A stretch of 64,000 bases of DNA from Promethearchaeota archaeon (lineage in GTDB: Archaea > Asgardarchaeota > Lokiarchaeia > Sigyniarchaeales > SOKP01). Below are positions 34,537-63,750 of this stretch, piece after piece. Numbering within the stretch: position 1 is the first letter of the stretch; every line of letters begins with the position of its first letter. The DNA is taken from assembly GCA_016839555.1 (NCBI GenBank), contig JAEOUA010000007.1, forward strand, positions 96,001 through 160,000, given 5' to 3'. The position numbers and the translations under genes were made by a program. The notes under the pieces were generated by a model. The model was not told the DNA's origin, made no database searches, and saw nothing but the letters and a program-made list of their open reading frames with translations.

Positions 34537-34540
34537 TATC

Positions 34541-37852: not shown

Positions 37853-37928
37853 ATCTAATTTATACTCAAATTATTAGAAAATTTTGGACCACTATTCTTT
37901 TAAATATTTGTATTTAGTTTTTTAATAT

Positions 37929-38087
37929 ATGGCAATATCAACTAATAATAGGTATAGAAGTTGCGTTGACTGCGACCATTATAATGAGGAGAGGCAATAT
38001 TGTGAATACTTTAAGAGAAAGCTCTCTCCACACTGTTATTGTTTAGTAGACGGAAATATGGTTTATTTCCTTAAAAACAATAACTAA
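37929..38087 (+). CDS. Unannotated 52-aa Cys-rich protein: MAISTNNRYRSCVDCDHYNEERQYCEYFKRKLSPHCYCLVDGNMVYFLKNNN
   Basis: Hand translation; CxxC-x9-C-x10-CxC; TTTTAAATA box at 37898-37906 (leaderless spacing); T-tract right after the stop; more GC-rich than the flanks. Confidence 0.62.
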   Translation: MAISTNNRYRSCVDCDHYNEERQYCEYFKRKLSPHCYCLVDGNMVYFLKNNN

Positions 38088-38252
38088 TCGTTTTTTTTCT
38101 CTCTTATTCTCGATCTTTTTATTCTATTTAATTAAAACATTTTTTATTTTACTGATATTATTTTTGAGAAGATAATTATATTAATTAAATTAGTAAAATT
38201 AGATATACAAAATATATTAAATAGTAAACAAAGCCGTATAAATGTAAATACA

Positions 38253-39392
38253 ATGATTTATAAAACTGAAAAACCAGCTATTTTGATGTTAGATAGTGGG
38301 CTATATTTTAAGGGAATTGGTTTTGGCGCCGTTAAAAAAGTATCTGGTGAAATCATATTTAATACAATACCAGGTTCGGGTTATGTTGAATTATTAACTA
38401 ATCCCACAAATAAAGGAAAAATTATAGTATGTACATACCCCTCCATCGGTAACTACGGGGTTCCCGCAAAATTGAGAGATGAATATGGGATATTAAAACA
38501 GTTTGAATCAGACTCAATTCATATAAATGGACTCGTAATCAGCGAATATTGTGATACACCGAGTCATTATGAAAGTATCAAAACCTTAGAGGAATGGCTT
38601 ATAGAGGAGGATATTCCTGCTATACAATGGGTAGATACGAGAAGGTTAACCCAATATCTCGTTCAAAATAAAACCTCTATGGGGATTTTACAAGTTTTTG
38701 ATCAAAATAGCAAACCAAATATTCAAGCTTTACGAGAAGAAGCAAAAAAATTAAAGAATTTAAATAAAAGAAATTTAGTAGAAGTGGTTTCCACCAAAAA
38801 AGTGAAAACTTATTCTTGTGAAAATAGTAAGGCAACAGTTCTCATTATTGATTTAGGAGTGAAAAACGGTATTTTAAGGGTTCTTCTCAAAAAAAAGATG
38901 GATATCGTTATAGTTCCCCATAATTTTTACTATAATAATATAATGGAGTTAAGGCCTGATGGAATTTTGATTTCAAATGGACCAGGGAATCCGAAAATAT
39001 ATTCTGAAATCGTGAACTTAATCGAAAAACTTCTAAATACAGAAACTCCAATGATGGGAATAGGATTGGGTCATATTTTAATTGGATTAGCGGCAGGTGC
39101 AGAAGTCTATAAGATGAAAGCCCCTCATAGAGGGGGAAGAACAACTGTGAAAAACTCAACAAATCAATGTTATATAACTTACCAAAATCATGGCTATTGT
39201 TTAAAAAGTTTAAAAGAAAATGGTTTTTCAGAATACTTTCATGATAAGGATGATGGATCGAATGAAGGGCTGATTCATAAAAATAAATCAATTTTTTCAG
39301 TTTTATTTAATCCAGAAGGATCCCCTGGGCCATTAGATGTGAGGGATATCATATTTGATAAATTTATAGAATCAATCAAGGTGAAGAAATAA
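38253..39392 (+). CDS. carA: Carbamoyl-phosphate synthase small subunit homolog, glutaminase-inactive
   Basis: Full-length CarA paralog, but nucleophile GICLG reads GIGLG and QFHPE reads LFNPE; stop overlaps the carB2 ATG (TAATG). Confidence 0.9.
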   Translation: MIYKTEKPAILMLDSGLYFKGIGFGAVKKVSGEIIFNTIPGSGYVELLTNPTNKGKIIVCTYPSIGNYGVPAKLRDEYGILKQFESDSIHINGLVISEYCDTPSHYESIKTLEEWLIEEDIPAIQWVDTRRLTQYLVQNKTSMGILQVFDQNSKPNIQALREEAKKLKNLNKRNLVEVVSTKKVKTYSCENSKATVLIIDLGVKNGILRVLLKKKMDIVIVPHNFYYNNIMELRPDGILISNGPGNPKIYSEIVNLIEKLLNTETPMMGIGLGHILIGLAAGAEVYKMKAPHRGGRTTVKNSTNQCYITYQNHGYCLKSLKENGFSEYFHDKDDGSNEGLIHKNKSIFSVLFNPEGSPGPLDVRDIIFDKFIESIKVKK

Positions 39393-42300: not shown

Positions 42301-42703
42301 GAAAATAATCCCTTTAGCAAAAAAATTGAAAAATATGGGATTTACGATCTTTGCGACGGAGGATACTGCTCTGGCTCTTAAAAAGAATGGAATTGATACT
42401 GTAAGATTATATAAAGTACATGAAGTTGGAAAAGAGCCAAATATTATGAAATGTTTACGAAAAGGAGAAATAGATTTAGTAATTAACATCCCCTTACCAA
42501 CGACGGTCAAAGAGAAATTTAGGCAAATAATGGAGGATGAATATAAAATTAGACGCCATGCGGTCGATTTTAATATTCCTGTTATCATTAATTTACAACT
42601 TGCCAAATCATTAATTAACGCCATTGAAAAAATGCGTCAAAAACAATTCTCAATTAAGGCTTTAAATGATTACCATAAATCATTAGAAGAAGTGTATTGG
42701 TAA
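39392..42703 (+). CDS. carB: Carbamoyl-phosphate synthase large subunit (copy 2)
   Basis: Same motifs and same 1103-aa length as copy 1. Confidence 0.96.
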   Translation: MPLDKSIKKVLVLGSGAVRIGQAGEFDYSGSQVLKALNEEGIETILVNPNIATIQTDPQMSDKVYLVPINVKYVEEIIEKERPDGICLSFGGQTGLNVGVELKEAGILDKYNVRVFGTPIKAIEATEDRDLFVKAMNEANCPVCKSKAVTSYKEAKQVVEKFGFPLMLRVAYVLGGRGSGIIHNMKEFERKAKVGLAQSRINQILIEESVWGWKEIEFEILRDADDNCFINCSMENVDPCGIHTGDSIVVAPAQTLTDEELQMLRSASIRATKAVGVCGECNIQWALDPFSKKYRAIEINARLSRSSALASKATGYPLAYIAAKIAVGYTLPELINQITLKTTANFEPATDYMVLKYPRWDLTKFEKVDRHIGPQMKGVGECMSIGRCFEEVCQKALRMLDINLKGFVANDLEPIEDINELKYELRNPTDLRFLRISEAIKRGISIEEIYERSRIDKWFLHKLENIIKIEKELENLDFLQSSDEDKEYLLTRAKRFGFSDGQIGKIMGLTTPVIRRLRKRLRIVPYVKQIDTLAGQIEPERHYLYLTYWGDKHDIDFEKEEQENQKKVIVLGSGTYRIGSSVEFDWGCVNCLWGLQELGVDKAIIINYNPETVSTDYDISDRLYFEELSGERVLDICELEKPYGIVLNAGGQIAQNLAAKFAKYSEFYRKTNIRILGTHGSRIDMAEDRVKFSALLDDLHINQPEWAMLTTTEEAIEFAEKVGYPVLVRPSYVLSGAAMRVSYDKKTLKDTLDLAAAVSREYPVIITKFFTDSREVECDGICDGENVLIGAIVEHIENAGVHSGDATMTIPPQTISKKIIKQIEEYTREIALALKILGPFNIQYLVKDGEVSVIECNLRSSRSMPYVSKTRGINLMKLAAEVIMGNKIPKKLIDLPYGNFVGVKAPMFSFMRLDNADPILGVEMNSTGEVGVLGDDFADALMKALEAAENNIPIKNGNVLISVGGEELKKKIIPLAKKLKNMGFTIFATEDTALALKKNGIDTVRLYKVHEVGKEPNIMKCLRKGEIDLVINIPLPTTVKEKFRQIMEDEYKIRRHAVDFNIPVIINLQLAKSLINAIEKMRQKQFSIKALNDYHKSLEEVYW

Positions 42704-42843
42704 AGATAATCATAGATAAAAAGACCTATTGTATAAAAAAATAATCTTTTTCTCTCGATATTTTACACAAAATTATCTAATACCATGTATTTCTTTTAAA
42801 ATTTCTTAAAAAAAATTTAAAAAGGGAAAAAGAAAATTAATTT

Positions 42844-43611
42844 TTAAAAAAGAAATATTTTAATCATTAGAAACAAACTCAAACAAATAATAAAGATACC
42901 AGCTAATGTTTTCATGGATTTTTCTTTTTTAATTTTTTTGGTAGCTAATGCTCCTATGAAAGATGCTGGAACAGCTCCAATTATTAAAAGTAGAGGTAAT
43001 AGGGGATCAAAAAATCCATGAAACAAGATATAGAAAATTAAACTCGTAATACAGATAGGTGCTTCACAAGCTAAAGCCGTTGCTATTGAACTCTTTGTAT
43101 CTCTGCCAGAAACTACTTGTCCTGCCGTCACAAGTGGACCAAACCCACCACCCGAAATTGCTTTATTAAAAGAACTTATTAATCCTATTGCTACTATTTT
43201 ATTCCAAGAAAAACTATATTCCTTTTTTCTAAGCATTAAAGCACCAATAAATAGAACAAGAAATGCAATATAAATTTCAATAATTAGTTTGTTCAGACTA
43301 AATGCTAAAATGACCGAAATAAAAGCTGCAAAGGATCCTAAAATTGAAATAAGTCCACACACTTTCCAATTCATCTCACTATTTTTAGTAAAACTAGTAT
43401 TTTCAAATAGATGATGCGCAAAAGCTCCAGAAAGACCGGTAAAGATCTCTGATAAAAGTATTGAAGGCACAATGTAAAATAGATCTAGACCCAAAATTAA
43501 AAAAAGTGGAGTTAAAATTGTTCCATACCCTCCTCCCAGCGAAGTATCAATAAATTCTAAACCAAAAGCTAAAATTATTATTAGTATTCCTAAAATTATA
43601 TTTATCTCCAT
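42844..43611 (-). CDS. TauE/SafE (TSUP) sulfite-exporter family membrane protein
   Basis: DTSLGGGYGTILTP and NKAISGGGFGP duplicated Gly motifs, ~8 TM. Confidence 0.85.
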   Translation of the reverse strand: MEINIILGILIIILAFGLEFIDTSLGGGYGTILTPLFLILGLDLFYIVPSILLSEIFTGLSGAFAHHLFENTSFTKNSEMNWKVCGLISILGSFAAFISVILAFSLNKLIIEIYIAFLVLFIGALMLRKKEYSFSWNKIVAIGLISSFNKAISGGGFGPLVTAGQVVSGRDTKSSIATALACEAPICITSLIFYILFHGFFDPLLPLLLIIGAVPASFIGALATKKIKKEKSMKTLAGIFIICLSLFLMIKIFLF

Positions 43612-43962
43612 TTTTCTCAGATGATTTTTTAAGTTTTATTTTATAGTAATTAAGTATCATTAAATCTAATTAAATATAACTATGCTACATTAATATTAAA
43701 AGTTTTCTTTAAATTGAATTCTGATAAAATTTTTTTTATTAATCAATTTTCCATATTGAATTCCTATAGAACAATCAAAAGCTTATTTTTCCCTCTCATT
43801 TATATAATAGATAATTTAATCATATGTTGATTGAAATTAACAACGTATTTTTTAAAATAACATCATTGAGAAGAAATAATTCACTGGATATTTAATATGG
43901 TAAAATATTAATGAAATATGCAAATATAAAATTTTTAAAAATAACTTGTAAAATTAATTAAG

Positions 43963-44763
43963 TTAATAAATGATATTGATAAGACTAAAAATCGAGAGAG
44001 TAATAGCATAGAGCGGGATTATTACTCTCCAAATTTTGTTAGGTATAACTCTTACTAGATATGGAGAGATTAACGCTCCAAAAAATGCTCCCGTAAAGAT
44101 CGAAGGAAGAAGGATAAGATCTATTGTTACACCAGACCAACTTATCAAGAAAAAACTGAATACGCCCATTATAGAAACAAGTCCTTCAGCAAAAGCCACA
44201 ATTGCTCTGGCACTTTTTTCATAAACCCCTGAAAAGATTTGTCCTAGGGTTATAATAGGACCATAACCCCCTCCACTTATTCCCTTATTAAAACCAGCAA
44301 TAGCAGAAAATAATAATAAAAGTCTTGGTTTAACTTTGGATTCTGACTCATTCCTATTCTCATATCCATTTTTTAACCTAACTATTCCTACTCCTCCCAT
44401 AATAAGTACAAGAACCGAAACATAAATCTCAATAATCAATTCTGGAAATTTAATCGCAAAATATGCAATTATAATAGAAATAATAATAGCTATACATCCT
44501 ATTAAAGCAAATAAAAATGCGTATTTAGTTGCATCACTAAAGGGTTTAAATGTAAAATTAATATTTTCAAATTCATGGTCAAAATAAGCAGTTATTAAAC
44601 CAGTTATTGTTTGAGAAATAAGTAATGAAGGAACTATTTGTAGTGAATTGTAACCAAATAAAAACAGTAATGGAGCTAATCCTGTTCCAAAACCCATCCC
44701 AGTTGCTGAGTCCATAGCCGCAAGAAAAAAGGAAATCAAAATTACAATAATAATTAAATCCAT
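43963..44763 (-). CDS. TauE/SafE (TSUP) sulfite-exporter family membrane protein
   Basis: DSATGMGFGTGLAP and NKGISGGGYGP motifs. Confidence 0.85.
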   Translation of the reverse strand: MDLIIIVILISFFLAAMDSATGMGFGTGLAPLLFLFGYNSLQIVPSLLISQTITGLITAYFDHEFENINFTFKPFSDATKYAFLFALIGCIAIIISIIIAYFAIKFPELIIEIYVSVLVLIMGGVGIVRLKNGYENRNESESKVKPRLLLLFSAIAGFNKGISGGGYGPIITLGQIFSGVYEKSARAIVAFAEGLVSIMGVFSFFLISWSGVTIDLILLPSIFTGAFFGALISPYLVRVIPNKIWRVIIPLYAITLSIFSLINIIY

Positions 44764-44772
44764 ATAAAAGGC

Positions 44773-44928
44773 CTATATAAAGAAATAGAATAATACCATT
44801 ATAAGAAAATATACTAAAATAGCCAATAAAATTTTATGCCAAGTTCGCTTTTTGATCTTCATTCTTTCCTTTAAACTTTTTTGATCCAATGTTTTTGCTT
44901 CATTTCCAATATTAAGGGAATTTGACAT
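44773..44928 (-). CDS. Unannotated 51-aa single-TM protein: MSNSLNIGNEAKTLDQKSLKERMKIKKRTWHKILLAILVYFLIMVLFYFFI
   Basis: Hand translation; GAGAG upstream; stop 9 bp before the TSUP ATG; basic patch then a C-terminal hydrophobic helix. Confidence 0.6.
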   Translation of the reverse strand: MSNSLNIGNEAKTLDQKSLKERMKIKKRTWHKILLAILVYFLIMVLFYFFI

Positions 44929-45125
44929 AGATTTACTCTCTTTTCTTTAATTCATTTGATTGTATTTAGTTATTATATATAATTATATTTAATTAAAAAC
45001 TATTATCATTTTAAAACTCTTCGATTCTATGAGTAAAATAATAATAGAACTGACTTATTTGAAAATTTTGTTAAATTGAATTTATAAGAGTATTAAGAAG
45101 TAAAATATTAAATATTTAAAAATTT

Positions 45126-46781
45126 TTATTGTTTAAAATTTATTTTCTTTAAGACGGGATATCTTCTTCCGATTCCGAATGCACTAGAACTTACTTTAAT
45201 CGATTGAACTAATTGTCTTCTCTTAAATTCCGCTTTTAAATAAAGATTTTCTACTTTGTCAATTGTTTCAGAACTAATTCCATATTTTTTAAGTTCTGTA
45301 AAATTGGTCCCAATTCCATAATTTATTATATTCTGAAGAATTTTGTCTAAAATAGAATAAGGTGGTAAAGAATCGCTGTCTTTTTGATTTTCTCTCAGCT
45401 CTGCTGTTGGGGCTCTTGTTATAATTCCATTCGGTATTATTTCTTCATTTCGATTAATCCATTCACATATATCATATATTTGCACTTTTAAAAGATCTCC
45501 TGGAATATTTTTTCCTCCACATGTATCGCCATATAATGTACAATATCCAACAGCTATTTCTGACTTATTTCCAGTAGAAACCAGGAGCCAATTATATTTA
45601 TTTGAATAATACATCAATATATTAGCTCGGATTCTTGCCTGCAAATTCTCATCAGCAATATCAAATGAGATTTCTCCTAGCTTATTTTTAAGTGAATCTT
45701 CAAAACTATTGAAAACTTCATCAATAGGATGGATGATATATCGAGATCCAATATTCTCACATAATTTACGTGCTAGATCTATACTTTCTTGAGAAGTATA
45801 TCTTGTTGGCATCATGATATTGGTAACCTTATCTGGTCCAAGTGCTTTAGCACAAACATAAGATGTAAACGCGGAGTCAATACCACCGCTCAAACCTAAA
45901 ACAACTCCATCGAATATATTAATTTTATGAAAATAATCGTATAAATTAAGTGAAAGTGCTTCTATTACCTCTTCTCTCCAATCTTTAGATTTTTCTATCT
46001 CTTTAATATGCTCTTTTTTATCAATATGGAGAGTAATAGATGGAAAATCCTCTTCAAATGCTTTAGCTTTGTAAAAAAGTTGACCAAATTGATTAATAAT
46101 AAAACTTTGTCCGTCATAGACAATCTCATCTAATCCCCCAACCATATTGACATATATTATTGGAATTTGGAATCTTTTTGCTTTCTCGCAAATTATTTTT
46201 TTTCTTATCTCAAATTTATCAATATGATAAGGAGATGCATTGATAACTATTAATAATTCTGCCCCATTTTGAACCAAATTATCCGCAACTTTAATATCAT
46301 AATGTTCATCCCATATATCTTCGCAAATCAAGATTCCAACTTGGACACCTTTAATCTCAATCGGTTTAAATTGTTCATCAAAAGAGAAATATCTGCGTTC
46401 ATCAAATACATCGTAATTAGGTAATAATCGCTTATTTTCAATATATTTGATTTTTTTATTTTCAATTACAAGAGCAGAATTGTAGAATCTCTGAATTTTT
46501 TCCTTTAATTCTTCAGGTTCAGTAAATGTGCCGAGAATTATTGTAGATTCTGTATCTAATTCTGTAATCTCATCAATATATTCCTTATTCTTTTCGCAAA
46601 TCATAGGGTCAAGGATATGATCCATTAATGGATAACCCACTAGAGACATCTCAGGAAATATTATCATATCAGCTTTTTTGTTGGATTTAATGATCTGAAC
46701 AATTTTTTCTGCATTGTATTTTATATCTCCTACAATTGGATTAATCTGTCCGATTAAAACCGTTAATTGTCTGTTTTCCAT
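45126..46781 (-). CDS. nadE: Glutamine-dependent NAD+ synthetase (nitrilase + synthetase domains)
   Basis: Nitrilase triad FPEM / NKRLLPNY / ICEDIW; GLSGGIDS, ENLQARIR, TGNKSE, PTAELR. Confidence 0.94.
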   Translation of the reverse strand: MENRQLTVLIGQINPIVGDIKYNAEKIVQIIKSNKKADMIIFPEMSLVGYPLMDHILDPMICEKNKEYIDEITELDTESTIILGTFTEPEELKEKIQRFYNSALVIENKKIKYIENKRLLPNYDVFDERRYFSFDEQFKPIEIKGVQVGILICEDIWDEHYDIKVADNLVQNGAELLIVINASPYHIDKFEIRKKIICEKAKRFQIPIIYVNMVGGLDEIVYDGQSFIINQFGQLFYKAKAFEEDFPSITLHIDKKEHIKEIEKSKDWREEVIEALSLNLYDYFHKINIFDGVVLGLSGGIDSAFTSYVCAKALGPDKVTNIMMPTRYTSQESIDLARKLCENIGSRYIIHPIDEVFNSFEDSLKNKLGEISFDIADENLQARIRANILMYYSNKYNWLLVSTGNKSEIAVGYCTLYGDTCGGKNIPGDLLKVQIYDICEWINRNEEIIPNGIITRAPTAELRENQKDSDSLPPYSILDKILQNIINYGIGTNFTELKKYGISSETIDKVENLYLKAEFKRRQLVQSIKVSSSAFGIGRRYPVLKKINFKQ

Positions 46782-47040
46782 ATTTATATTAACACTTCCA
46801 CTTAATTAAAAAAATTCATTTATAGCTTATTTATTCTATTATAAAATTTTCATACAAGTTCATATTAATTCATAATTTATGAGGCCTTATTAATATTGCT
46901 TCATAATCCTTATCCGAATTCTATTAAAGAATAATTAAATTTCTCAATGACCTTTATATAATTAATTATATTCTTTTAATCAAACAATAAATATATAAAT
47001 TTTAAAATAAAAATATAATAAAATAATATTGTGTTAATAA

Positions 47041-48276
47041 ATGGCTGAAGCTGATATTGCTTTTGTTTTGATATGCACTGGTTTGGTCTTTATAATGACA
47101 CCTGGATTAGCCTTCTTTTATGGCGGATTATTAAGGAAAAAAAATATTATTAATATGATGGCAATGTGCTTTGTTTCCATTGCGATCGTTTCTATCTTAT
47201 GGTTTTTCTTAGGTTATAGTTTAGCATTTGGTCCTGATATTGGAGGTTTTATTGGCGGATTCGATTATATAGGATTAATCGGAGTAGATTTTCAATCGGA
47301 ATTCGATTTTTCATTAATATTAGGAGATATCTACAGATATTTCTTTCTTGCTCCAACAATTCCTGACATGTTATTTATGGTATTTCAGTTAATGTTTGCT
47401 ATTATTACTGTTGCAATAATTGCAAGTCCATTTTCAGAAAGAGTAAACTTTGGTGCTTTTTGCATTTTTATCTCTATTTGGTTAATCATCGTGTATTCTC
47501 CAATTGCTCACTGGGTGTGGGGAGAAGGAGGATGGTTAAATGTTATGGGCGCACTTGATTTTGCTGGAGGTACAGTTGTTCACATAAATGTGGGATTTGC
47601 CGCATTAGCAGTAGCAATGGTAATAGGACCACGTGCAGGATATCAAAAAGAATCACATGGACCATCCAATATACCTTATGTATTATTAGGAATGGGATTA
47701 TTATGGATCGGGTGGTTTGGTTTCAACGGAGGTAGTGCTTTAGCTGCAAATGGTGATGCTGTTTTAGCAGTATTTAACACGCATATCGCTGCAAGTTCTG
47801 GGGGCATAATTTGGATGTTGATTGAATATTCAAGAACAAAAAAATTCAGTACTTTGGGTCTCGCTTCAGGAGTGCTTGCGGGCTTAGTTGCCATAACACC
47901 AGCAGCTGGATTTGTACAACCATGGGCGGCACTTCTTATAGGAACTATTTCAGGAGTATTTTGCTTTTTCGCACTTTCCCTACGTTCACGCTCGAAAATT
48001 GATGAATCATTAGATGCTATCTCTATTCATGGAACAGGAGGTATCTGGGGTGCAATTGCTACAGGAATATTCGCAAGTATAGGTTCATCTGGATTACTTT
48101 TAGGAAATTTAGTACAATTCTTTATCCAAATACTCGGTGTTGTAGTAACCATAGGATTTTCATTTGGTATAACTTATGCTTTAGCATGGGTTCTTAATAA
48201 AACAATTGGATTTAGAGTACCTATTGAATTGGAATATGTAGGTCTTGATATGTCGCAGCATGGAGAAATAGCATGA
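47041..48276 (+). CDS. amt: Ammonium transporter
   Basis: MTPGLAFFYGG, FQLMFA, DFAGGTVVH, LWIGWFGFNGGS, twin His (VVH, SIHG). Confidence 0.96.
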   Translation: MAEADIAFVLICTGLVFIMTPGLAFFYGGLLRKKNIINMMAMCFVSIAIVSILWFFLGYSLAFGPDIGGFIGGFDYIGLIGVDFQSEFDFSLILGDIYRYFFLAPTIPDMLFMVFQLMFAIITVAIIASPFSERVNFGAFCIFISIWLIIVYSPIAHWVWGEGGWLNVMGALDFAGGTVVHINVGFAALAVAMVIGPRAGYQKESHGPSNIPYVLLGMGLLWIGWFGFNGGSALAANGDAVLAVFNTHIAASSGGIIWMLIEYSRTKKFSTLGLASGVLAGLVAITPAAGFVQPWAALLIGTISGVFCFFALSLRSRSKIDESLDAISIHGTGGIWGAIATGIFASIGSSGLLLGNLVQFFIQILGVVVTIGFSFGITYALAWVLNKTIGFRVPIELEYVGLDMSQHGEIA

Positions 48277-48281
48277 GGTGA

Positions 48282-48629
48282 ATGAGAATGAAAAAAATTG
48301 AATGTTTTATTAGGGCAGAAAAGCTTGAAATAGTGAAAAAAGCTTTATTCGAGAAAGGAATAAAAGGTATGAGTATTTATGAAGTACGTGGTCATGGTCA
48401 TCAAAGAGGCATGTTGTTAACAGGAAGAGCAGGACAATATTGTGTTGAATGGATCGGAAAACTAAAAATGGAAATTGCTATTAGTGATAAAGTGAATCTT
48501 GATGAAATTATTGATGTTATCATTGAAAATGCTAGAACGGGCAATCCAGGCGATGGAAAAATTTTCATTATTCCTATAGAAGATGCAATCAGAATTAGAA
48601 CCAACCAAAGAGGAGAAGAAATACTTTAA
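48282..48629 (+). CDS. glnK: PII nitrogen regulatory protein
   Basis: MKKIECFIR, EVRGHGHQRG T-loop, ARTGNPGDGKIF, RIRT; directly downstream of amt. Confidence 0.92.
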   Translation: MRMKKIECFIRAEKLEIVKKALFEKGIKGMSIYEVRGHGHQRGMLLTGRAGQYCVEWIGKLKMEIAISDKVNLDEIIDVIIENARTGNPGDGKIFIIPIEDAIRIRTNQRGEEIL

Positions 48630-51448: not shown

Positions 51449-51910
51449 ATGGAGTTAGAAAAATTAGATCTAGAAATTCTAAAAATCTTGAGTAAGGATG
51501 GGAGAAGATCTTTAAGGAGGTTAGCAGAAGAATTAGATAAATCTCCCACCACTATTAAAAAGCATTTGGATGATTTATAAAAAGAAGGTTTTATAAAGAA
51601 TTATGGGGTATCATTAAATTATGACAAATTGGGTTATAAGGAGATTGCATTAATAGAACTTACAATTGATAAAGGAATGATGATCGAGGTGGAGGAAATA
51701 ATCTCTCAAGATCCACATATTTTTGGTGTGTTTGATATAACAGGGGAATATGATGCTGCCATATTAGCTAGATTTAAGACAAAAGAAGATTTGAGCCAAT
51801 TAATAAAAAAAATTAATACTAATGAATTTGTTTTACAAACAAATACTCAAATTATCCTTAATGTGATAAAAGATGGATTGGATTTTTGTAAATTAATACA
51901 AAATGAATAG
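51449..51910 (+). pseudogene. Lrp/AsnC transcription regulator interrupted by one in-frame TAA
   Basis: MELEKLDLEILKILSKDGRRSLRRLAEELDKSPTTIKKHLDDL*KEGFIKNY...KLGY...DITGEYD; TAA at 51578-51580, same frame on both sides. Confidence 0.85.
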
Positions 51911-52027
51911 GAAAAATGAGTTTTAATATTAAAAAATAGTGATTAAATAGATTTTTAATGATAGTTTAAAAAAAAATTGATGGTTATTCAAAAATTAAAC
52001 ATATTCTAAGAAAAATTCATGTGAGTT

Positions 52028-52825
52028 TTAGATGAGTTCTCCACAATAATTCCCTCCAAATGGTCTTTTTGATATGGGTTTGATTACTTTAAAGGGTTTT
52101 TGATCAATAATTTCCCTAGGTATATTAAAAATATTGCAGAATTCATCTAAGTATGGTCTTATTTGCCTTAAATCCTCTTTAGTTACACCAAATATTTTTG
52201 CTCCAATTCCCAATTTTTCTTTTAATTTTTCATTTGTCCGAAGTAAAATCCACCCTCTATGCATTCCAGTACCAAGTTCGCCCCCACAGATCGGTTGATT
52301 ACTTTCTATTACGCTTCCATCGGAGAGGGTTTTTAAACCTAACACAATAATTATCCCTCCAGCCATATATTCTCCTAGAAAATCTTTCGCAGTTCCTCCT
52401 ATGATTAAGATTGGATGTTTATGTTCGTATTCTTTGATATGGATACCTACTCGATAACCAACATCATTTTTAATAAAAATTTTTCCTCCCCTCGCAGATA
52501 ATCCAATTACATCTCCACAATCTCCGTGAATAATCAAATTTCCATCATTCATTGTATTTCCTGCTTGATCTTCACAATTTCCATTAACGATTATGGTTGG
52601 CCCATCCATAAAGATTCCTAGATCATTTCCAGGTAAACCGTTGATAATTATTTCTATATCTCCTTGTAAAGATGCTCCAATAAACCGTTGTCCACAAACA
52701 TTATTGAGGATAATTTTGTCTTTTCCCTTATCTAATGCTTTATGAATTTGTTCATTTAGATTTTTATAACCTAAAGGTTTTCCATTAGGTATTGCATCTA
52801 TTTCTATTACATTATTATTTGACAT
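52028..52825 (-). CDS. gltB3: Glutamate synthase GXGXG beta-helix subunit (GltB3)
   Basis: GQRFIG, GLPGNDLG, GNTMNDG, FLGEYMAGG, GTGMHRG. Confidence 0.88.
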   Translation of the reverse strand: MSNNNVIEIDAIPNGKPLGYKNLNEQIHKALDKGKDKIILNNVCGQRFIGASLQGDIEIIINGLPGNDLGIFMDGPTIIVNGNCEDQAGNTMNDGNLIIHGDCGDVIGLSARGGKIFIKNDVGYRVGIHIKEYEHKHPILIIGGTAKDFLGEYMAGGIIIVLGLKTLSDGSVIESNQPICGGELGTGMHRGWILLRTNEKLKEKLGIGAKIFGVTKEDLRQIRPYLDEFCNIFNIPREIIDQKPFKVIKPISKRPFGGNYCGELI

Positions 52826-52851
52826 AATTATTTCCTCTCCTTTTTTTCTTA

Positions 52852-54375
52852 TTATTCTCCAGCGTGTTTAACGCCTAATATATCTGCTATTCTTGGATTT
52901 GGCCCGATATATCTGAGTCTGTCTCTATTAGAGCGCAATGATTCTACGGAGTCTATGCCCATTGCCCCTAGAACTTCTTTCAATTCCTCATTCCAGCTAT
53001 GAAAAAGATTAATAATCCTGTTTCGAGCCATATCTATATCCAATCGTCTAACGAGATACTCTTGTTGAGTTGCAATACCCCATGAACAAAGTCCTCGAAA
53101 GCATTGTTGACAGACGCGACATCCCATAGCTATTAACACAGGCATACCTACCATACAAACATCAGCTCCTAATGCAATGGCTTTAATTAAGTCTGCTGAA
53201 TATCTGATTGAACCCCCTGCCACAAGTGTAATTTGATCTCGCAGATTTTCCTGACGTAAACGCTCATCCACAGCAGCGATTGCTAATTCTATAGGAATGC
53301 CCGCATGATCTCTTATAATTCGAGGGGCAGCACCGGTACCCCCTCTAAAACCATCGAGCGTAATAAAATCCGCACCGCCTCTGACTATTCCCACAGCAAT
53401 AGGGGCAGAATTATGAACAGCCGCTATTTTTACTCCTATAGGGACTTTATATCGTGTTGCCTCTTTTAATGCTGCTATTAATTGGGCTAAATCTTCTATT
53501 GAATAGATATCATGATGAGGATAAGGACTTAATGCATCAGAACCTTTAGGAATCATACGAGTTTGAGAAATTAAACTGTTAACTTTCTCACCTGGAAGAT
53601 GTCCCCCATGACCAGGTTTCGCTCCTTGTCCGATTTTAATTTCTATTCCAGCTGCATTTTTAAGATAATTGATATCTACGCCAAATCTCCCCGAAGCTAT
53701 TTCAGTAATAATATTAGGACCGTATTCATAAAAATCTTGATGTAGTCCACCTTCACCTGAACCCGCTAATATGTTTAACTCTTTAACTGCTTGATAAATC
53801 GCCATAACAGCATTATAACTTATTGAGCCAAGACTCATATGGCCAACCATTATAGGCATAGCAATCTCGAAATTAGGTGAAAAATCTGTTTTGAGTGAAA
53901 TTTCATCTGGGTCATCTAAATTATAGCAAAATTCTAGCTTTTCTGGTTTCCGTCCAAAAAAAATTTTTGTTTCAATAGTCTCTCTTAATGGATCAATGGC
54001 AGGATTAGTAACTTGGCAAGCATCGAGCAACAAATCGTCAAAAATAACTGGAATTGGACGATCATTTCCAGTAGCAGAAAGTAACACCCCACCATCTCCT
54101 GCTTGCCTCCAAATTATATTTCGAATTCTTCTCGTGTAATTACCATGAGGAGGTAAATAAGAATCATTTCTTACAATTCTTATGGCTTTATCAGGGCACA
54201 TTGCTACACATCGATTACACGCAACACATTTTGAATCATCTGAAACTATTCTTTCACCATTAAAAGAAAGTGCACCATAGCTGCAGTGCGTTGTGCAACG
54301 CTTGCATTTTTTACAAGATTCTTGGTCTATTTTAACTTTGAAGTAAGATGGTATTTTGTGAGCTAATGAAGACAT
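52852..54375 (-). CDS. gltB2: Glutamate synthase FMN-binding subunit with N-terminal 2x[4Fe-4S] ferredoxin (GltB2)
   Basis: MSLGSIS, SGEGG, ASGRFGV, EIKIGQGAKPGHGGHLPGEKV, PHHDIYSIEDL, GCRVCQQCFRGLCSWGIATQ. Confidence 0.93.
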   Translation of the reverse strand: MSSLAHKIPSYFKVKIDQESCKKCKRCTTHCSYGALSFNGERIVSDDSKCVACNRCVAMCPDKAIRIVRNDSYLPPHGNYTRRIRNIIWRQAGDGGVLLSATGNDRPIPVIFDDLLLDACQVTNPAIDPLRETIETKIFFGRKPEKLEFCYNLDDPDEISLKTDFSPNFEIAMPIMVGHMSLGSISYNAVMAIYQAVKELNILAGSGEGGLHQDFYEYGPNIITEIASGRFGVDINYLKNAAGIEIKIGQGAKPGHGGHLPGEKVNSLISQTRMIPKGSDALSPYPHHDIYSIEDLAQLIAALKEATRYKVPIGVKIAAVHNSAPIAVGIVRGGADFITLDGFRGGTGAAPRIIRDHAGIPIELAIAAVDERLRQENLRDQITLVAGGSIRYSADLIKAIALGADVCMVGMPVLIAMGCRVCQQCFRGLCSWGIATQQEYLVRRLDIDMARNRIINLFHSWNEELKEVLGAMGIDSVESLRSNRDRLRYIGPNPRIADILGVKHAGE

Positions 54376-55574
54376 TATGAATTACCTCCCATAATAGTTA
54401 ATTTAATTTTTTCAAATGGTTGTTTGAGTCCATCATTAATTAATCCCTCGCCCACTCTTGCAATAATAGCTGTCCCACTTTTAGGATGCCAAATCTCTTT
54501 AAAATTAAATCCGTTGCTGGAATCTAAGATAAGGCGTCTAAAGGAGGCTTCTTCACTGCTCAGAAATATAGTATTTTCATCATCTGATAATCCTGCCACG
54601 AGAGGGCGGAGTTTTTTTCTATCAGAAAGACCAATTAGAGTAGGAATTGGATCCGTCATCCCAACTACAATAGAGAAGGGACCATTTAACATAGTAGATC
54701 GATAAGTTGCTCTTAAATTTTTTAGAATATATTGATATTTTTTATCCATTTGGTTAATCTCTTTAAATAATGGAGGTGCTAATGCAATAGTCGTGATTGA
54801 AAGAGGTATTTTATGTTTTCTTACTAATAAATCGAAAAGATAAGCAATAACCTCAGTGTCAGTTTTTAAGGTACATTTATATCCAAATGATTCTAAGTAT
54901 CGCATATTAGTACCATAAGATGTAATTTCCCCATTATGAACTACACTTGTTCCTAAAAGATTGAATGGGTGTGCGCCACCCCACCATCCAGGTGTATTTG
55001 TCGGAAATCTACTATGTGCTAGCCACATATAAGCTTTATAATCTTTAATATTATAAAAGTCTGCAATTTCATAAGACCATCCATTTCCTTTAAAGACCCC
55101 CATATTTTTACCAGATGACATAATATAAGCCCCTTCGAAGTTGGAATTAATATCCATGACCAATTGGACGACTTCTTCATCAGGCGAAACACTTTTCATC
55201 TCTTTTGGTTCATAGAATACTCGCCAAGTGATAGGTGGAAAATCAATATGTCCGGGAACTTTCGTTGGGATGGCTTCAGAATGAATAATATAACCCATTT
55301 TTTCTAGATGGTTTATAACATGTTCCTTGCATTTTTCATGGTCAAATAAAAAATGAAGAGCATAATAATCTTTATATTTTGGATAAATTCCATAGCCTGC
55401 AAAACCAGCACCTAATCCGTTTTCTCTTTCACTTAAAATACAAAGCATATCAAATACTTTTTGTCCACTTTCTCTTTCACTGTTTAAATTTAAAAAGCCA
55501 GAAATTCCACATCCGTCAAAAACTCTTTCATTTCGAAAAAGCTCTGGTAAAGAAGTATAATTTTTCCAAATCAT
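54375..55574 (-). CDS. gltB1: Glutamate synthase class II glutamine amidotransferase subunit (GltB1)
   Basis: DGCGISG (Ntn Cys after a short propeptide), HSRFPTNT, AHPF, HNGEI, DTEV, GPFS, DRKKLRP. Confidence 0.9.
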   Translation of the reverse strand: MIWKNYTSLPELFRNERVFDGCGISGFLNLNSERESGQKVFDMLCILSERENGLGAGFAGYGIYPKYKDYYALHFLFDHEKCKEHVINHLEKMGYIIHSEAIPTKVPGHIDFPPITWRVFYEPKEMKSVSPDEEVVQLVMDINSNFEGAYIMSSGKNMGVFKGNGWSYEIADFYNIKDYKAYMWLAHSRFPTNTPGWWGGAHPFNLLGTSVVHNGEITSYGTNMRYLESFGYKCTLKTDTEVIAYLFDLLVRKHKIPLSITTIALAPPLFKEINQMDKKYQYILKNLRATYRSTMLNGPFSIVVGMTDPIPTLIGLSDRKKLRPLVAGLSDDENTIFLSSEEASFRRLILDSSNGFNFKEIWHPKSGTAIIARVGEGLINDGLKQPFEKIKLTIMGGNS

Positions 55575-55594
55575 TTTCTTGTTGTTTTCTCAAT

Positions 55595-56926
55595 TTATTT
55601 ATTATTTTTTACTTTATTAATTAAAACTTTCAAATCTTCAAGCTCTGGTTTAACCGTTTCTAAACCAACTCGTTGGCGAGCGACTTTCGAAAACATAGTA
55701 ACAATCCCTTCTTTTTCAAAAGTGGTTAGTTCATCTTTAAACCCATCAGCAATAAATCCTCTTTCTTTAGCTAAATTACGTAAAATGGTAAACAACTCAA
55801 CTAATCCAATCTTCATAGGACAAAGTTCATAACAAACATAACAATCAAGGCATAACCAAATCGATGGATCTTCAATTACTTTATCAATCTTTCCGTTTAG
55901 AATCTTTTTAACTATTTTTTGTGGATTGAATTCTTGCGGCAAATATTTTGCTACTGGACAGTCATTATTACACGCACCACAAGAATAGCAGGTTTTTAAA
56001 AATTCCAAGTTGAAATATTTCTCTATTTCTTTATTTTTTTGATGGATATCATCGATTTTTTCAAATATACCATTAACTTGAGTTCGATGATACTTCTTTA
56101 TCATATTTTTTATATCTAAGCCTAATGCTATACATAATAATTCCGAATAATAAAGCACGGGAATGTCAAAATCATAATCTAACTTTTTTAATTCTTTCTG
56201 GAGATGATCAAATTGAATAAAACATTGAGGACATCCTACAACAATTACATCAACATTTTCTTTTTTCATACTTTCTAGTTTAGTCAAGACCATTTCTAAC
56301 CCAGAATCAGGATTTCCGGCTCTTGCAAGACTGCCTCCGCAACAATCCATTTTATGAATATAGTCCACGCTTTTTGCTCCAAGATCTTCAATTAATTTAT
56401 CAAACATATGTGGTTCCATAGGATCATCCATTTGTATTTTATTGCTGGGTCGAAGGAAGTGGCATCCATAATGCACTGCAACCCGTAGTCCATTTAATTG
56501 ATATTTAATTTTTTCTTTTATAACATCACTACCCAATTTATGAAAAAATTCAATTAAATGATACACATCTGAAGCACCCTCAACGTGTAAATCAATATTT
56601 TTTAAATATTTATTCATCTTATTCCTGAAATGACTATCGACCTTTATTTCACTCCGGATTCCTTTTAAAGTCTCAAAACATCCATTACATGGAGTTAGTA
56701 TATCTTTTTTGTCTTTTTCAGCTATGCCAAGGTTCCTAGATGCGGTTATATTATAAATTAATTGATTTGAATTTTTAATTCCGTTTGGTTCCGGACAACA
56801 TGAAAATCTATTACTTTCTGTATATTGGATATTGAATGATTCTAAAGCTTTTTTAACGGATATCTCTATAAACGGTAAACGATATGAAATCATACATCCA
56901 GGAAATAAGATTATATTATCTCTAAT
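55595..56926 (-). CDS. hdrBC: Heterodisulfide reductase HdrB-HdrC fusion protein, probable ATT start
   Basis: Two CCG domains (FPGC...SCCP...PCNGC; HYGCH...CCGG...CPQC) and HdrC-like CYSCGACNNDCP / WLCLDCYVCYELCP; the first Cys (IILFPGC) lies upstream of the ATG at 56893; GAGG 10 nt before ATT at 56926. Confidence 0.85.
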   Translation of the reverse strand: MRDNIILFPGCMISYRLPFIEISVKKALESFNIQYTESNRFSCCPEPNGIKNSNQLIYNITASRNLGIAEKDKKDILTPCNGCFETLKGIRSEIKVDSHFRNKMNKYLKNIDLHVEGASDVYHLIEFFHKLGSDVIKEKIKYQLNGLRVAVHYGCHFLRPSNKIQMDDPMEPHMFDKLIEDLGAKSVDYIHKMDCCGGSLARAGNPDSGLEMVLTKLESMKKENVDVIVVGCPQCFIQFDHLQKELKKLDYDFDIPVLYYSELLCIALGLDIKNMIKKYHRTQVNGIFEKIDDIHQKNKEIEKYFNLEFLKTCYSCGACNNDCPVAKYLPQEFNPQKIVKKILNGKIDKVIEDPSIWLCLDCYVCYELCPMKIGLVELFTILRNLAKERGFIADGFKDELTTFEKEGIVTMFSKVARQRVGLETVKPELEDLKVLINKVKNNK

Positions 56927-57472
56927 TGTTTTGAATCCTCGCTTTGGAAAATATATATATTCTTTAACTATATTATATTTAACTTAAATAACTATATTAT
57001 CTCACATAATATAAAGTTTTCTATTAGATAAAAAAAAAATTTATTTTTACAAAATTATTCTCATATAACATGCGTATATGCAAAGTTATATTGGTTATAT
57101 TATGTATTTTGTAAAAAAATAAGAATATAGAATTAGAATATTTAATTTTTTTCTAATATATTGTTTCATTAATATTTTTTAATATTTTATTCATTTATTG
57201 TTGATCACTTTATTAAAATTCTATTTTTTGCTTTAATTTATTAATAGGTTCTAAATATTTAGATCTGAAAATGTAAAATAAAAATTTTAACTCTCATTCG
57301 AATAAATATTTAATTATTTTGCTATGTTTAAAGATTTTAATAATTTTGTAAATAATTTTATGTTTTCTTCATTATATAGAGTCCCAATTAATTTTAATAT
57401 TGATAAAATTAGCTTTATTTTACAGTATTTCTAAAGATCTTTCTTGTTTTCAATAAAAAAATTGTTGCTATT

Positions 57473-61077: not shown

Positions 61078-62304
61078 ATGATAAAAGAATCTGATTTTTT
61101 TAGTGAAATGTTAACCTCAGAAGAACGAGAGCTATATGATAGACAATTCCGTTTAGAAGGGTGGTCTCAAAAGGTCGTTAAGAATTCTCGAGTGTTAATT
61201 ATAGGTATTGGGGGTTTAGGGTGTGAGATAGCTAAAAATCTTGCAATGCTTGGAGTTGGTCATTTAGACTTAGTTGATTTAGATGTTATTGAGTATTCTA
61301 ATTTAAATAGGCAATTATTATTTGCTGGAGCTAAATTGGGTCAGCCGAAAGCCATAGTTGCCGCTGAAAAATTAAAAGAAATAAATCCCAAAATAACTAT
61401 AAAAGCATATCACTCTTCTTTAGAAAGATTAGATCCAATTATTTATAAAAAAGCGGATGTCGTTATTGGCGGACTAGATTCGATGAACGCTCGACTTAAC
61501 CTAAATGCCCATTGTATACGATTTGGAAAACCACTTGTTGATGGAGGTGTAGCTGGATATCATGGACATATGTATACTGTATTTCCATATGTGAATGCAT
61601 GCTATGAATGTAATCCATTGCCTGTAGGTGAAATTGATGACATGGCAGCATGTACGGTGGTCGGCATACCTCGTAAACGTATACATTGTGTATTTAAAGG
61701 TGATATGGCATTTAAAGAAAAATTTGAGCGAGATCCCAATCCGAAGGATATTAATGATATAAAATTTATTCAAAAAGAAGCAAATATATTAGCTGAGAAG
61801 TATGATTTTCTCCCTAAATTCACCAAATCCGATATTTTACAGATTATAGATAGGCATGATCCGGGCATTATCACAATAAATGCCTTAATATCGGCGATGG
61901 AGTCCCATGAGGCTGTAAAAATAATACATTGGATAAACGGACATAAAGCTTTGGGGAGACCAGTGACATCATATGTAGTTTTTAATGCTATGACTATGAA
62001 ATTTTACCATATTGAAAAAAAAAGAAATCCCGAATGTCCTCAATGCGGAAATAATGTAAAAAGAGTAAAAATACAAATAAGAAAGACTTCTCCATGTGAA
62101 AATATTATAAAACTTTTACTAAATAATGGATTTGAATTAGATCCCGATTACGAGCCAATTTTAACCACAATGGATTTTAATAATATCAAAGTAGTGGATT
62201 TGGATAAAACACCGATTGAAAATGATCTTAGGAATTTTGACCTTATAACGGCTGTTGGCTTTAAGAATTTCGGCGAGATTTTTATTACATTAAATTTAGC
62301 ATGA
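61078..62304 (+). CDS. Ubl-activating enzyme E1 (Uba2/Uba3-like)
   Basis: YDRQ, GIGGLGCE, DLDVIEYSNLNRQ, ACYEC, catalytic ACTVVGIPR...HC, NPECPQC, ~80-aa C-terminal domain (UFD-like). Confidence 0.9.
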   Translation: MIKESDFFSEMLTSEERELYDRQFRLEGWSQKVVKNSRVLIIGIGGLGCEIAKNLAMLGVGHLDLVDLDVIEYSNLNRQLLFAGAKLGQPKAIVAAEKLKEINPKITIKAYHSSLERLDPIIYKKADVVIGGLDSMNARLNLNAHCIRFGKPLVDGGVAGYHGHMYTVFPYVNACYECNPLPVGEIDDMAACTVVGIPRKRIHCVFKGDMAFKEKFERDPNPKDINDIKFIQKEANILAEKYDFLPKFTKSDILQIIDRHDPGIITINALISAMESHEAVKIIHWINGHKALGRPVTSYVVFNAMTMKFYHIEKKRNPECPQCGNNVKRVKIQIRKTSPCENIIKLLLNNGFELDPDYEPILTTMDFNNIKVVDLDKTPIENDLRNFDLITAVGFKNFGEIFITLNLA

Positions 62305-62403
62305 TTATTCTCTTATAATTTTATTCAAAAAAGTATTTAATAAAAATATATTAGATAGAATTATTACTTAATTTATAAAAATGATATAAAAAGAAGTGAA
62401 ATT

Positions 62404-62931
62404 ATGAGTTTAAGAAGCACGAGGATATCTCAAGATTTTGCGGCATTAAAAAAAATGATAAAAAACGGAACTATAGTCCAATTAAAACCTTGGGATAAAA
62501 AAAACAAGAGTATAGACCATCTTAAGGTTACCATTGAAGGACCAAAAGGAACTGCATATGAGGGGGGATTATTTAGGTTGGAAGTAAAATATCCTCCGCA
62601 ATATCCTAAAGTTCCTCCTTTTCTAAGATTATATACCCCTATTTGGCATCCAAATTTCTGGCCGAAACCCCATGAATATAAAGGGCAGAGAAATATTTGT
62701 TTAGCGTTGATTGATCCCTCATTAATTGGCAAAAAAGGGGGTTGGTCTCCTTCAAAAACTATTGTTACTGTGATCAATGCTATTATTGCGATGTTAAATA
62801 CTCGCGGAAAATATTTTAATCCCACAGATGTTTATAATAAAAAAGCTGCTTTAGAATCTATGAATAAGCGGGATTATTTTGAGAAAAAGGTTAAACATCT
62901 TGTAAAAAAATATGCGAATAAAAAGTGGTGA
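62404..62931 (+). CDS. Ubl-conjugating enzyme E2 (UBC fold)
   Basis: GPKGTAYEGGLF, YPPQYPKVPP, IWHPN...ICL, WSPSKTI. Confidence 0.92.
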   Translation: MSLRSTRISQDFAALKKMIKNGTIVQLKPWDKKNKSIDHLKVTIEGPKGTAYEGGLFRLEVKYPPQYPKVPPFLRLYTPIWHPNFWPKPHEYKGQRNICLALIDPSLIGKKGGWSPSKTIVTVINAIIAMLNTRGKYFNPTDVYNKKAALESMNKRDYFEKKVKHLVKKYANKKW

Positions 62932-62943
62932 GGAGAAAGGTAG

Positions 62944-63750
62944 ATGGATGAGAATCTAAAAAGAGATTCAATTAAAGAAACATTAAAAAAAAAAGTAAGA
63001 GAGCAATTAAAAGAAGAGCTCAAGAAAGAACTAAAACAAGAGCTTTTGGATGAAATTTATCAAGAATTAATGCAAGAAGAGATCGAATTCAAACAAGAAA
63101 TAACCTCAACCTTTAAAAATAAAATTGATAAAGGGAAATCTATTCAAAAAGCAGAAATGATAAAAGCACCCCAAAAAGTACAACAGATTCAAATTTCTAT
63201 AAAAGCAGTATTAAAAATGACAACCCATGCCTTAAAATATGCAAATAAAAATATACCACGAGAAAACTGGGTGGAGGTCATCGGATTGTTGGCAGGTAAA
63301 GAAAAAGATAACATTCTCCATATTAAGAATGCATATCCAATTGGGCATGGCAATGCAATTCATGTACAAATGGATGAGCGGAGAAATAAAAGAACTGGGC
63401 ATATTAAAGCATATGAAGAGAGTAGAAAAAGAAATTTATTTATTTGTGGATGGTATCATTCTCATCCCTCTTATGGGTGTTTTATGTCAGACGAAGATAT
63501 ATATACCCAAACCGAATATCAGAAACATTGGGAAAAAGCTGTAGCCATAGTGGTTGATCCTTATGAAATAGACGGGACTTCCTATGGATTCCAGGTATTT
63601 CGATGTGATTTAAAAACTCAAAAATGGTATTCCTTACCCTTTGAAATGGAAGAATCCTTAAATGTAAGCTTATTGCCCAAAATTTTAGATTTTGTAAATC
63701 CTATTGTTGATGGAGAAGCATTATTCTTAGAATATGATGAGGAATCATAA
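62944..63750 (+). CDS. JAB1/MPN+ metalloprotease (Rpn11/CSN5-like) with N-terminal coiled coil
   Basis: ISIKAVLKMTTH, EVIGLLAG, GWYHSHPSYGCFMSDED JAMM motif, AVAIVVDP. Confidence 0.92.
   Translation: MDENLKRDSIKETLKKKVREQLKEELKKELKQELLDEIYQELMQEEIEFKQEITSTFKNKIDKGKSIQKAEMIKAPQKVQQIQISIKAVLKMTTHALKYANKNIPRENWVEVIGLLAGKEKDNILHIKNAYPIGHGNAIHVQMDERRNKRTGHIKAYEESRKRNLFICGWYHSHPSYGCFMSDEDIYTQTEYQKHWEKAVAIVVDPYEIDGTSYGFQVFRCDLKTQKWYSLPFEMEESLNVSLLPKILDFVNPIVDGEALFLEYDEES

Follow-up and report, generated by a model that had tools for sequence, protein, structure and literature searches.

HdrBC Encoded with the Split Glutamate Synthase of an Asgard Archaeon: A Possible Thiol-Oxidizing Electron-Input Subunit

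To our knowledge, no biochemical work has established which donor supplies electrons to the split archaeal-type glutamate synthase (GOGAT), and the only proposal we know of, made for methanogens alone, is F420, acting via FrhB-like subunits. A glutamate synthase of this type is encoded in the DNA stretch analyzed here (the window), 64,000 nt of contig JAEOUA010000007.1 from a Promethearchaeota (Asgard) archaeon. Its three genes, gltB1, gltB2 and gltB3, follow hdrBC, a gene for a protein in which the HdrB and HdrC parts of heterodisulfide reductase are fused. We give a probability of roughly 0.5 to the reading that HdrBC is a dedicated fourth subunit of this synthase, feeding it electrons by oxidizing a thiol or a dithiol. 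The broader proposal, to which we would give a little under even odds, is that the four-gene module, found in anaerobic archaea and bacteria, represents a further, thiol- or dithiol-dependent class of glutamate synthase, in which the HdrB-type non-cubane cluster pair runs oxidatively. In this archaeon, it would be the sole glutamate synthase and would tie ammonium assimilation to the thiol/disulfide pool, by way of a lipoyl protein or of an Asgard thiol not yet known.

The synthase core resembles NAD(P)H-GOGAT and ferredoxin-GOGAT (PDB 1EA0, 7MFM, 1OFD) in its flavin mononucleotide (FMN)/synthase part (~4e-57) and in its amidotransferase and GXGXG parts. Here, however, the core is split into three polypeptides, and there is no GltD. 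Relative to these enzymes, GltB2 is extended at its N-terminus by a 2x[4Fe-4S] domain, and four cysteines make up the motif that corresponds to the three-Cys [3Fe-4S] motif of the bacterial enzymes. A three-piece GltB core with a fourth gene for electrons is shared with the putative F420-dependent GOGAT (MTH193); FrhB-type fourth subunits were proposed in methanogens and anaerobic methanotrophic archaea (ANME) (PMC3087415, PMC9012536). The fourth subunit here is HdrBC and not FrhB, and all eight FrhB homologues of the genome lie outside the window, away from the operon.

The heterodisulfide reductase HdrABC (PDB 5ODC, 7BKB, 8RVU) and HdrBC are alike in having two CCG domains with ten cysteines, two CxxCxxCxxxCP motifs and the same fold. 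In contrast to HdrABC, a single chain comprises both parts, B followed by C, and the scores fall below the NCBIfam equivalog cut-offs. The operon contains no HdrA, hdrBC is paired with glutamate synthase genes, and thiols would be oxidized in the proposed reaction instead of a disulfide being reduced. The best functional analogy would be the thiol:fumarate reductase TfrAB of Methanothermobacter, a biosynthetic flavoprotein reductase whose Fe-S/CCG subunit draws electrons from thiols and provides a precedent. In TfrB/HdrD-type fusions the ferredoxin-like part is N-terminal, whereas the order here is CCG-CCG-Fer4. HdrBC matches the TfrB model (NF004898) weakly, at 2e-15 and with 56 bits where the cut-off is 385, and the acceptor is fumarate in TfrAB but, as proposed, 2-iminoglutarate here. 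Another Hdr-like CCG enzyme, sHdr, works with lipoate-binding proteins (PMC6067878). The sHdr-LbpA system is tied genetically to these proteins and to dedicated lipoate ligases (PMC6067878, PMC11094781), and a similar association is seen in the bacterial relatives L108, L111, L115 and L116 of the present operon. sHdr has HdrA and sulfur transferases and serves sulfur oxidation, whereas the partner here is glutamate synthase and no lipoyl gene is linked in this Asgard window.

Operon layout and domain integrity

The operon fills positions 52028-56926 on the minus strand. Open reading frame calls and junction sequences were inspected, and the genes, from the first to the last, are as follows:

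55595-56926 from ATT (443 aa), or 55595-56893 from the first ATG (432 aa), minus strand: hdrBC, first gene of the operon
54375-55574, minus strand: gltB1, class-II glutamine amidotransferase subunit (Pfam GATase_2, 5e-11)
52852-54375, minus strand: gltB2, 2x[4Fe-4S] and FMN/synthase domain (Pfam Glu_synthase, PF01645, 1.8e-127)
52028-52825, minus strand: gltB3, GXGXG C-terminal beta-helix subunit (Pfam PF01493, 8e-31)

hdrBC and gltB1 are separated by a gap of 20 nt, gltB1 and gltB2 overlap by 1 nt (TAATG), and the gap of 26 nt between gltB2 and gltB3 includes GGAGAGG. This agrees with the initial annotation, made from the DNA letters, which described four co-oriented genes with the same three junctions. 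That hdrBC, gltB1, gltB2 and gltB3 constitute one predicted operon and subunit set is strongly supported by the synteny described below.

In Pfam, HdrBC shows two CCG domains and, C-terminal to them, a 4Fe-4S dicluster domain. Residues 1-295 constitute the HdrB part and residues 300-430 the HdrC part with 2x[4Fe-4S]. In NCBIfam, residues 3-280 match HdrB (2e-72) and residues 300-428 match HdrC (8e-23). TIGR03288 (HdrB) gives 243.9 bits (cut-off 345), NF041780 gives 132.5 bits (cut-off 450), and TIGR03290 (HdrC) stays under its cut-off of 160. The cysteines, numbered on the 443-aa reading from ATT, are directly readable. They are C11-x31-CC43,44-x35-C80xxC83 in the first CCG domain, C155-x39-CC195,196-x35-C232xxC235 in the second, and C313xxC316xxC319xxxC323P and C359xxC362xxC365xxxC369P in the HdrC part. 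All of them (10/10 in the CCG domains and 8/8 in the ferredoxin motifs) are intact, and they are conserved in alignment A1 (17 homologues, 38-83% identity), where C11 is present in every sequence that extends that far. The two CCG domains and both HdrC [4Fe-4S] motifs are thus intact, as had been annotated, provided that translation starts upstream of the ATG at 56893.

In a PDB sequence search, the full-length HdrB part shared ~37% identity with solved HdrB (8rvu_b, 2e-58), and the HdrC part matched solved HdrC at 2e-18. The AlphaFold2 model of HdrBC has a mean confidence (pLDDT) of 86.6, and its template modeling (TM) scores against solved chains in Foldseek are 0.90 for HdrB and ~0.58 for HdrC. 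The fold matches also include EtfD and LutA, the latter with TM scores of 0.42-0.74 and 17% identity. NCBIfam additionally reports a resemblance to SdhE-type membrane anchors (4.8e-38) and LdhH.

GltB1 has a candidate N-terminal nucleophile, Cys22 in FDGCGIS, which would require that 21 residues be cleaved off as a propeptide. In GltB2, the two [4Fe-4S] motifs at the N-terminus are both retained. Its FMN domain contains C419xxC422xxC425xxxxC430, which is invariant in alignment A2 and aligns to the 3-Cys [3Fe-4S] motif of Bacillus subtilis GltA. GltB2 matches the GltB/GltS large chains in PDB at 4e-57. GltB1-3 are predicted to form glutamate from glutamine and 2-oxoglutarate, in a context with glnA, amtB-glnK, Lrp and nadE nearby. 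As an alternative identity, N-methylglutamate synthase (MgsABC) was dropped on the basis of the GltB domain order, the Fe-S domains of GltB2 and the neighbors glnA, amtB-glnK and Lrp.

Linkage of hdrBC to glutamate synthase genes

Gene linkage was observed directly in three surveys. The first used one genome per prokaryote species (GTDB representatives) and yielded 80 loci with fused hdrBC. The second scanned metagenome contigs with a bacterial alignment and yielded 80 further loci. The third was a sample of 201 Asgard genomes.

Among the 80 GTDB-representative loci, every one with room downstream of the fused hdrBC (76/76) has gltB1 next, in the same orientation, and gltB2 and gltB3 come after it wherever the contig goes on. 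These loci belong to Asgard lineages, Bathyarchaeota, Sigyn- and Freyarchaeia, ~30 Methanoperedens, Methanosarcinaceae, Chloroflexi and 'Deltaproteobacteria'. gltB1 is beside hdrBC in 72 of the 80 metagenome loci, and the other 8 are cut by contig ends. The initial annotation, which had this one locus, had proposed a synteny survey of this kind; the linkage proves essentially complete. Homologues with 72%, 59% and 39% identity are all found in hdrBC-gltB1-gltB2-gltB3 runs with unrelated flanks. The recurrent neighbors of the operon are glnA (19 and 15 loci) and Lrp/AsnC genes (16 loci).

A fused full-length hdrBC is present in 18 of the 201 Asgard genomes. Fifteen of these 18 genes are ~1.2 kb from a GltB2 orthologue on the same contig and strand, and the other three are broken at contig ends. 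The fusion is present in 18 of the 20 Asgard genomes that have a GltB2 orthologue with at least 57% identity. The identities to the window proteins also co-vary between HdrBC and GltB1/GltB2, with a Spearman coefficient of 0.85-0.87 among sequences that are not independent, being kin. The synteny and these co-varying identities together indicate that the fused HdrBC belongs specifically with this glutamate synthase. Adjacency by chance, with hdrBC and gltB1-3 as unrelated neighbors without a functional relation, is therefore extremely improbable, given a pair kept in 148/148 informative loci from two domains of life with changing flanks, and identities that rise and fall together. A complex prediction for GltB2 and HdrBC with alignments gave a score of 0.00 with controls not run, and is given no weight either way.

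Proposed electron input by HdrBC and alternative explanations

In the proposed mechanism, the four gene products would associate as one enzyme, with GltB1 as the glutaminase, GltB2 as the ferredoxin-plus-FMN synthase and GltB3 as a structural beta-helix. HdrBC would stand where GltD (for NAD(P)H) or an FrhB-like protein (for F420) stands in other glutamate synthases. A thiol pair or a protein-bound dithiol would be oxidized in the HdrB part, at the two clusters of its CCG domains, and the electrons would cross the [4Fe-4S] cluster pair of HdrC. They would then pass to the two N-terminal [4Fe-4S] clusters of GltB2, to the four-Cys cluster of the FMN domain and to FMN, which would reduce 2-iminoglutarate formed with glutamine-derived ammonia. 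The disulfide would be re-reduced elsewhere: in some bacteria by Lpd and a lipoyl carrier, and in some methanogen-like archaea by HdrABC, both encoded in cis. In the present Asgard archaeon, re-reduction would take place in trans, and an orphan GcvH-like lipoyl protein is one candidate for the carrier.

Electron input is the most probable role of HdrBC. It is suggested by the lack of another input module here. The genome assembly (3.74 Mb in 12 contigs, 92% complete) contains one Glu_synthase gene and no match to the GltD-type Fer4_20 (PF14691), and no FrhB or HdrA match was found within the window besides the ferredoxin domain of GltB2 itself. These domain searches bear out the earlier statement that no GltD-like, FrhB-like or HdrA gene is nearby. 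The role is also suggested by what occupies the same slot elsewhere. In a paralogous Asgard operon (G041, G020, G058; GltB2 51% identical), the order is glnA, a Pyr_redox_2/Rubredoxin_C flavoprotein and gltB1-B2-B3, so that a flavoprotein of the NAD(P)H type takes the place of hdrBC ahead of gltB1, and FrhB-type subunits have been proposed for the fourth position in other glutamate synthases. Finally, the HdrB part is closely homologous to real HdrB, and the ferredoxin-like domain of GltB2 is at the other end of the path. HdrC reportedly wires electrons to HdrB in HdrABC, in the work on the 5ODC structure. The potentials of dihydrolipoamide (~-0.29 V), CoM-S-S-CoB, the heterodisulfide of coenzymes M and B (~-0.14 V), and the 2-oxoglutarate + NH4+/glutamate couple (~-0.13 V), with the driving force added by glutamine hydrolysis, allow thiol-driven glutamate synthesis.

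The glnA-flavoprotein-gltB1-B2-B3 type of operon was observed in one Asgard family (L019 at G041 C4:703000-716000, L020 and L021). In G041, an operon of the hdrBC type is also present, at a distance of 25 kb on the same contig.

Some operons contain further genes that may point to the nature of the donor. In a metagenome-assembled genome of Eubacteriales, the order is gltB1-gltB2-gltB3-lpd-lplA-lipA, a gene for a lipoyl protein of 77 aa, and hdrBC. A contig from a peat metagenome shows glnA ... gltB3-lpd-lipoyl protein-hdrBC-gltB1-gltB2, and Lpd or lipoyl genes are present in four more metagenome loci (L115, L116, L118, L166). Some methanogen-like contigs show a different addition, a complete hdrC-hdrB-hdrA(mvhD) set next to the module, as in amtB-glnK / glnA-hdrC-hdrB-hdrA(mvhD)-hdrBC-gltB1-3 in L124 and gltB3-hdrC-hdrB-hdrA in L129. 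The lipoyl/Lpd variants account for ~5% and the hdrCBA-type variants for ~11% of the metagenome sample, but for 0 and 1 of the 80 GTDB loci. A tblastn search with the GcvH-like, Lpd-like and LplA proteins of this genome found no lipoyl/Lpd gene near the 80 GTDB loci, apart from one LplA-like match (L092). Both kinds of additions are disulfide-reducing systems, and they fit a thiol-oxidizing HdrBC shuttle with a reductase that regenerates the thiol. As the variants are a minority, they support a thiol donor moderately. The thiol-oxidizing electron input proposed in the initial annotation thus has circumstantial support from some relatives, through Lpd/lipoyl genes or hdrCBA, while nothing for it comes from this organism.

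Coenzyme M (CoM) and coenzyme B (CoB), which were among the thiols suggested at first, are unlikely here, because neither the McrA nor the ComA family was found in the 92% complete genome; CoM-S-S-CoB, the substrate of HdrABC, is accordingly not indicated for this host. In the Methanoperedens versions of the operon, CoM/CoB may still be the thiol. The Asgard genome encodes a single GcvH-like protein, in which the lipoyl lysine is present (ESSKA), as well as one LplA and one Lpd-like flavoprotein, and neither GcvT nor an E2-type lipoyl domain was found in it. The GcvH-like lipoyl protein, which has no canonical partner, is a candidate carrier. Its gene (C5:430117-430539; minus strand at 6118-6540 in L112) is located between an NAD kinase gene and an MptE-like gene.

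Several points weigh against HdrBC as a thiol-oxidizing input subunit. Two Asgard genomes, G083 and G198, have intact gltB1-3 without hdrBC. In G083, the last 63 codons of hdrBC (46% identity) remain directly upstream of gltB1-3 (L017 8163-8351), which looks like a recent loss of hdrBC in a genus mostly without any glutamate synthase. GltB1-3 may therefore work without HdrBC, or the operon of G083 may be decaying. GltB2's own ferredoxin-like domain could take electrons from free ferredoxin. The presence of CCG domains is no proof of thiol chemistry either, since proteins of the LutA, SdhE and GlpC types keep the cysteines without a known disulfide substrate. The base of the HdrB-domain tree is unresolved; when two long-branch rows are removed, the 26 fused rows form one clade with a support of 78. 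The GOGAT-linked clade suggested for phylogenetic analysis by the initial annotation is thus compatible with the tree but weakly supported, and the tree neither establishes nor refutes that the GOGAT-linked HdrB domains are monophyletic. In most operons (~95% of those in the metagenome sample, and all 80 GTDB loci), neither a thiol carrier nor a disulfide reductase is encoded in cis. GcvH-family genes are present in 192 of the 201 Asgard genomes regardless of the operon, so that their presence does not discriminate, and no donor can be named from this genome.

The start codon of hdrBC is a further such point. The sole canonical start, ATG at 56893, is downstream of the first CCG cysteine (FPGC), a cysteine found in all full-length homologues. 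Upstream, the frame continues without a stop as far as the TAA at 56984-56986 and has no ATG, GTG or TTG ahead of that cysteine; the only start candidates there are ATT (56926), ATA (56914) and ATC (56911). Because the first CCG cysteine precedes the ATG, a start at the ATT is required for an intact first CCG domain. In some relatives, the corresponding codon is ATG or TTG, and four (L028, L029, L034, L061) have only ATT or ATA. ATT at 56926 is taken as the working start.

An alternative explanation is that HdrBC is a real subunit without thiol chemistry, acting as a wire or dock for ferredoxin, for a hydrogenase or dehydrogenase module or for a quinone-like carrier, as is presumed for LutA, SdhE and GlpC. 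The linkage data fit this equally well, as does the absence of a thiol carrier in cis from most operons, and the LutA and EtfD fold matches and the similarity to SdhE-type anchors and LdhH point in the same direction. This explanation nevertheless appears unlikely, because the HdrB part is far nearer to true HdrB than to LutA in both sequence and fold, and because recurrent insertions of Lpd, lipoyl carrier, LplA and LipA genes or of hdrCBA are hard to explain without disulfide chemistry. In another alternative, HdrBC would couple the synthase to an HdrA-type bifurcating flavoprotein encoded elsewhere, with 2-iminoglutarate as the high-potential branch and H2, formate or F420H2 as the source. 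The genome has ~10 HdrA homologues, all outside the window, and in L124 the hdrC-hdrB-hdrA(mvhD) set is immediately before the fused hdrBC. The distant Asgard clusters with hdrA-mvhD and gltB2-like genes described below also fit. However, HdrA is within 7 kb in only 9 of the 80 metagenome loci and 1 of the 80 GTDB loci, with none in the other 150 of 160 (~94%) or in this window, and an adjacent HdrA brings its own separate hdrB and hdrC, so that the fused copy would not be needed. Such coupling is rather improbable.

The reaction might also run in reverse and serve catabolism in an archaeon that ferments amino acids, with glutamate oxidation at GltB2 driving the reduction of a disulfide at HdrBC. 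HdrB normally reduces disulfides, and cultured Asgard archaea ferment amino acids. Very little credence can be given to this direction, since the glutaminase subunit GltB1 is always kept, the recurrent neighbors are glnA, amtB-glnK and Lrp, and four glutamate dehydrogenase-family genes in the genome are available for catabolism.

No description of a link between HdrBC and glutamate synthase was found in the full-text literature, a search that did not cover subscription journals, and an HdrBC-type electron-input subunit of glutamate synthase is probably undescribed. If electron input by thiol oxidation is true, many anaerobes would tie nitrogen assimilation to thiol/disulfide redox, as the module is hosted by Asgard archaea, Methanoperedens, Bathyarchaeota, Chloroflexi, and Firmicutes-like and Actinobacteria-like organisms. 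The roles of the HdrB active site would then extend beyond energy metabolism. For Asgard archaea, the question is raised of which thiol they use.

Genomic neighborhood and flanking elements

HdrBC is the only CCG protein in the window and the only B-then-C fusion in the genome. The genome has 44 CCG-domain matches, corresponding to more than 20 CCG proteins, and five separate hdrC-hdrB pairs besides the fusion. Several HdrA homologues have 2-3 in-frame TGA codons (for example, C7:12815-14737, C10:212945-214867 and C12:250124-252046), which suggests selenocysteine-containing HdrA.

In three Asgard genomes, the distant clusters L025 (G048), L026 (G007) and L027 (G139) contain an hdrA-mvhD fusion, hdrC, hdrB and FrhB-like, gltB3-like and gltB2-like genes, and no gltB1. 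Their gltB2-like proteins are 33-37% identical to GltB2. From their sequences, these clusters look like a different Hdr-linked, GltB-like oxidoreductase without glutaminase.

The other features of the window are as follows:

33403-37852: carA-carB pair 1
38253-42703: carA-carB pair 2, in tandem with the first
45126-46781, minus strand: glutamine-dependent NAD synthase (nadE)
47041-48629: amtB-glnK
51449-51910, plus strand: Lrp/AsnC-family regulator, convergent with the operon, with one in-frame TAA at 51578-51580
51911-52027, minus strand: putative operon terminator, with several oligo-T runs 3' of gltB3
56927-57472, minus strand: putative promoter region, AT-rich, 546 nt long, upstream of hdrBC
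61078-63750, plus strand: ubiquitin-like system (ThiF-type E1, UQ_con E2, JAB/MPN protease), between the operon and glnA

The nitrogen-metabolism cluster of the window spans 33403-48629. The single glnA of the genome is ~1.2 kb past the window end. With two carAB pairs, nadE and amtB-glnK in the window and glnA just beyond it, the neighborhood is directly seen to be one of nitrogen assimilation. In the putative promoter region, the run ATATATATAT is found ~25-35 nt ahead of the hdrBC ATT.

The in-frame TAA of the Lrp/AsnC gene is codon 44, in the helix-turn-helix region. Orthologues are found beside the operon in 16 other loci, and all the aligned ones listed have Glu at this codon; GAA to TAA would be one change. 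The interrupted gene may be a pseudogene, or may reflect a sequencing error or read-through. An Lrp/AsnC paralogue is located near glnA (C6:162656-163153).

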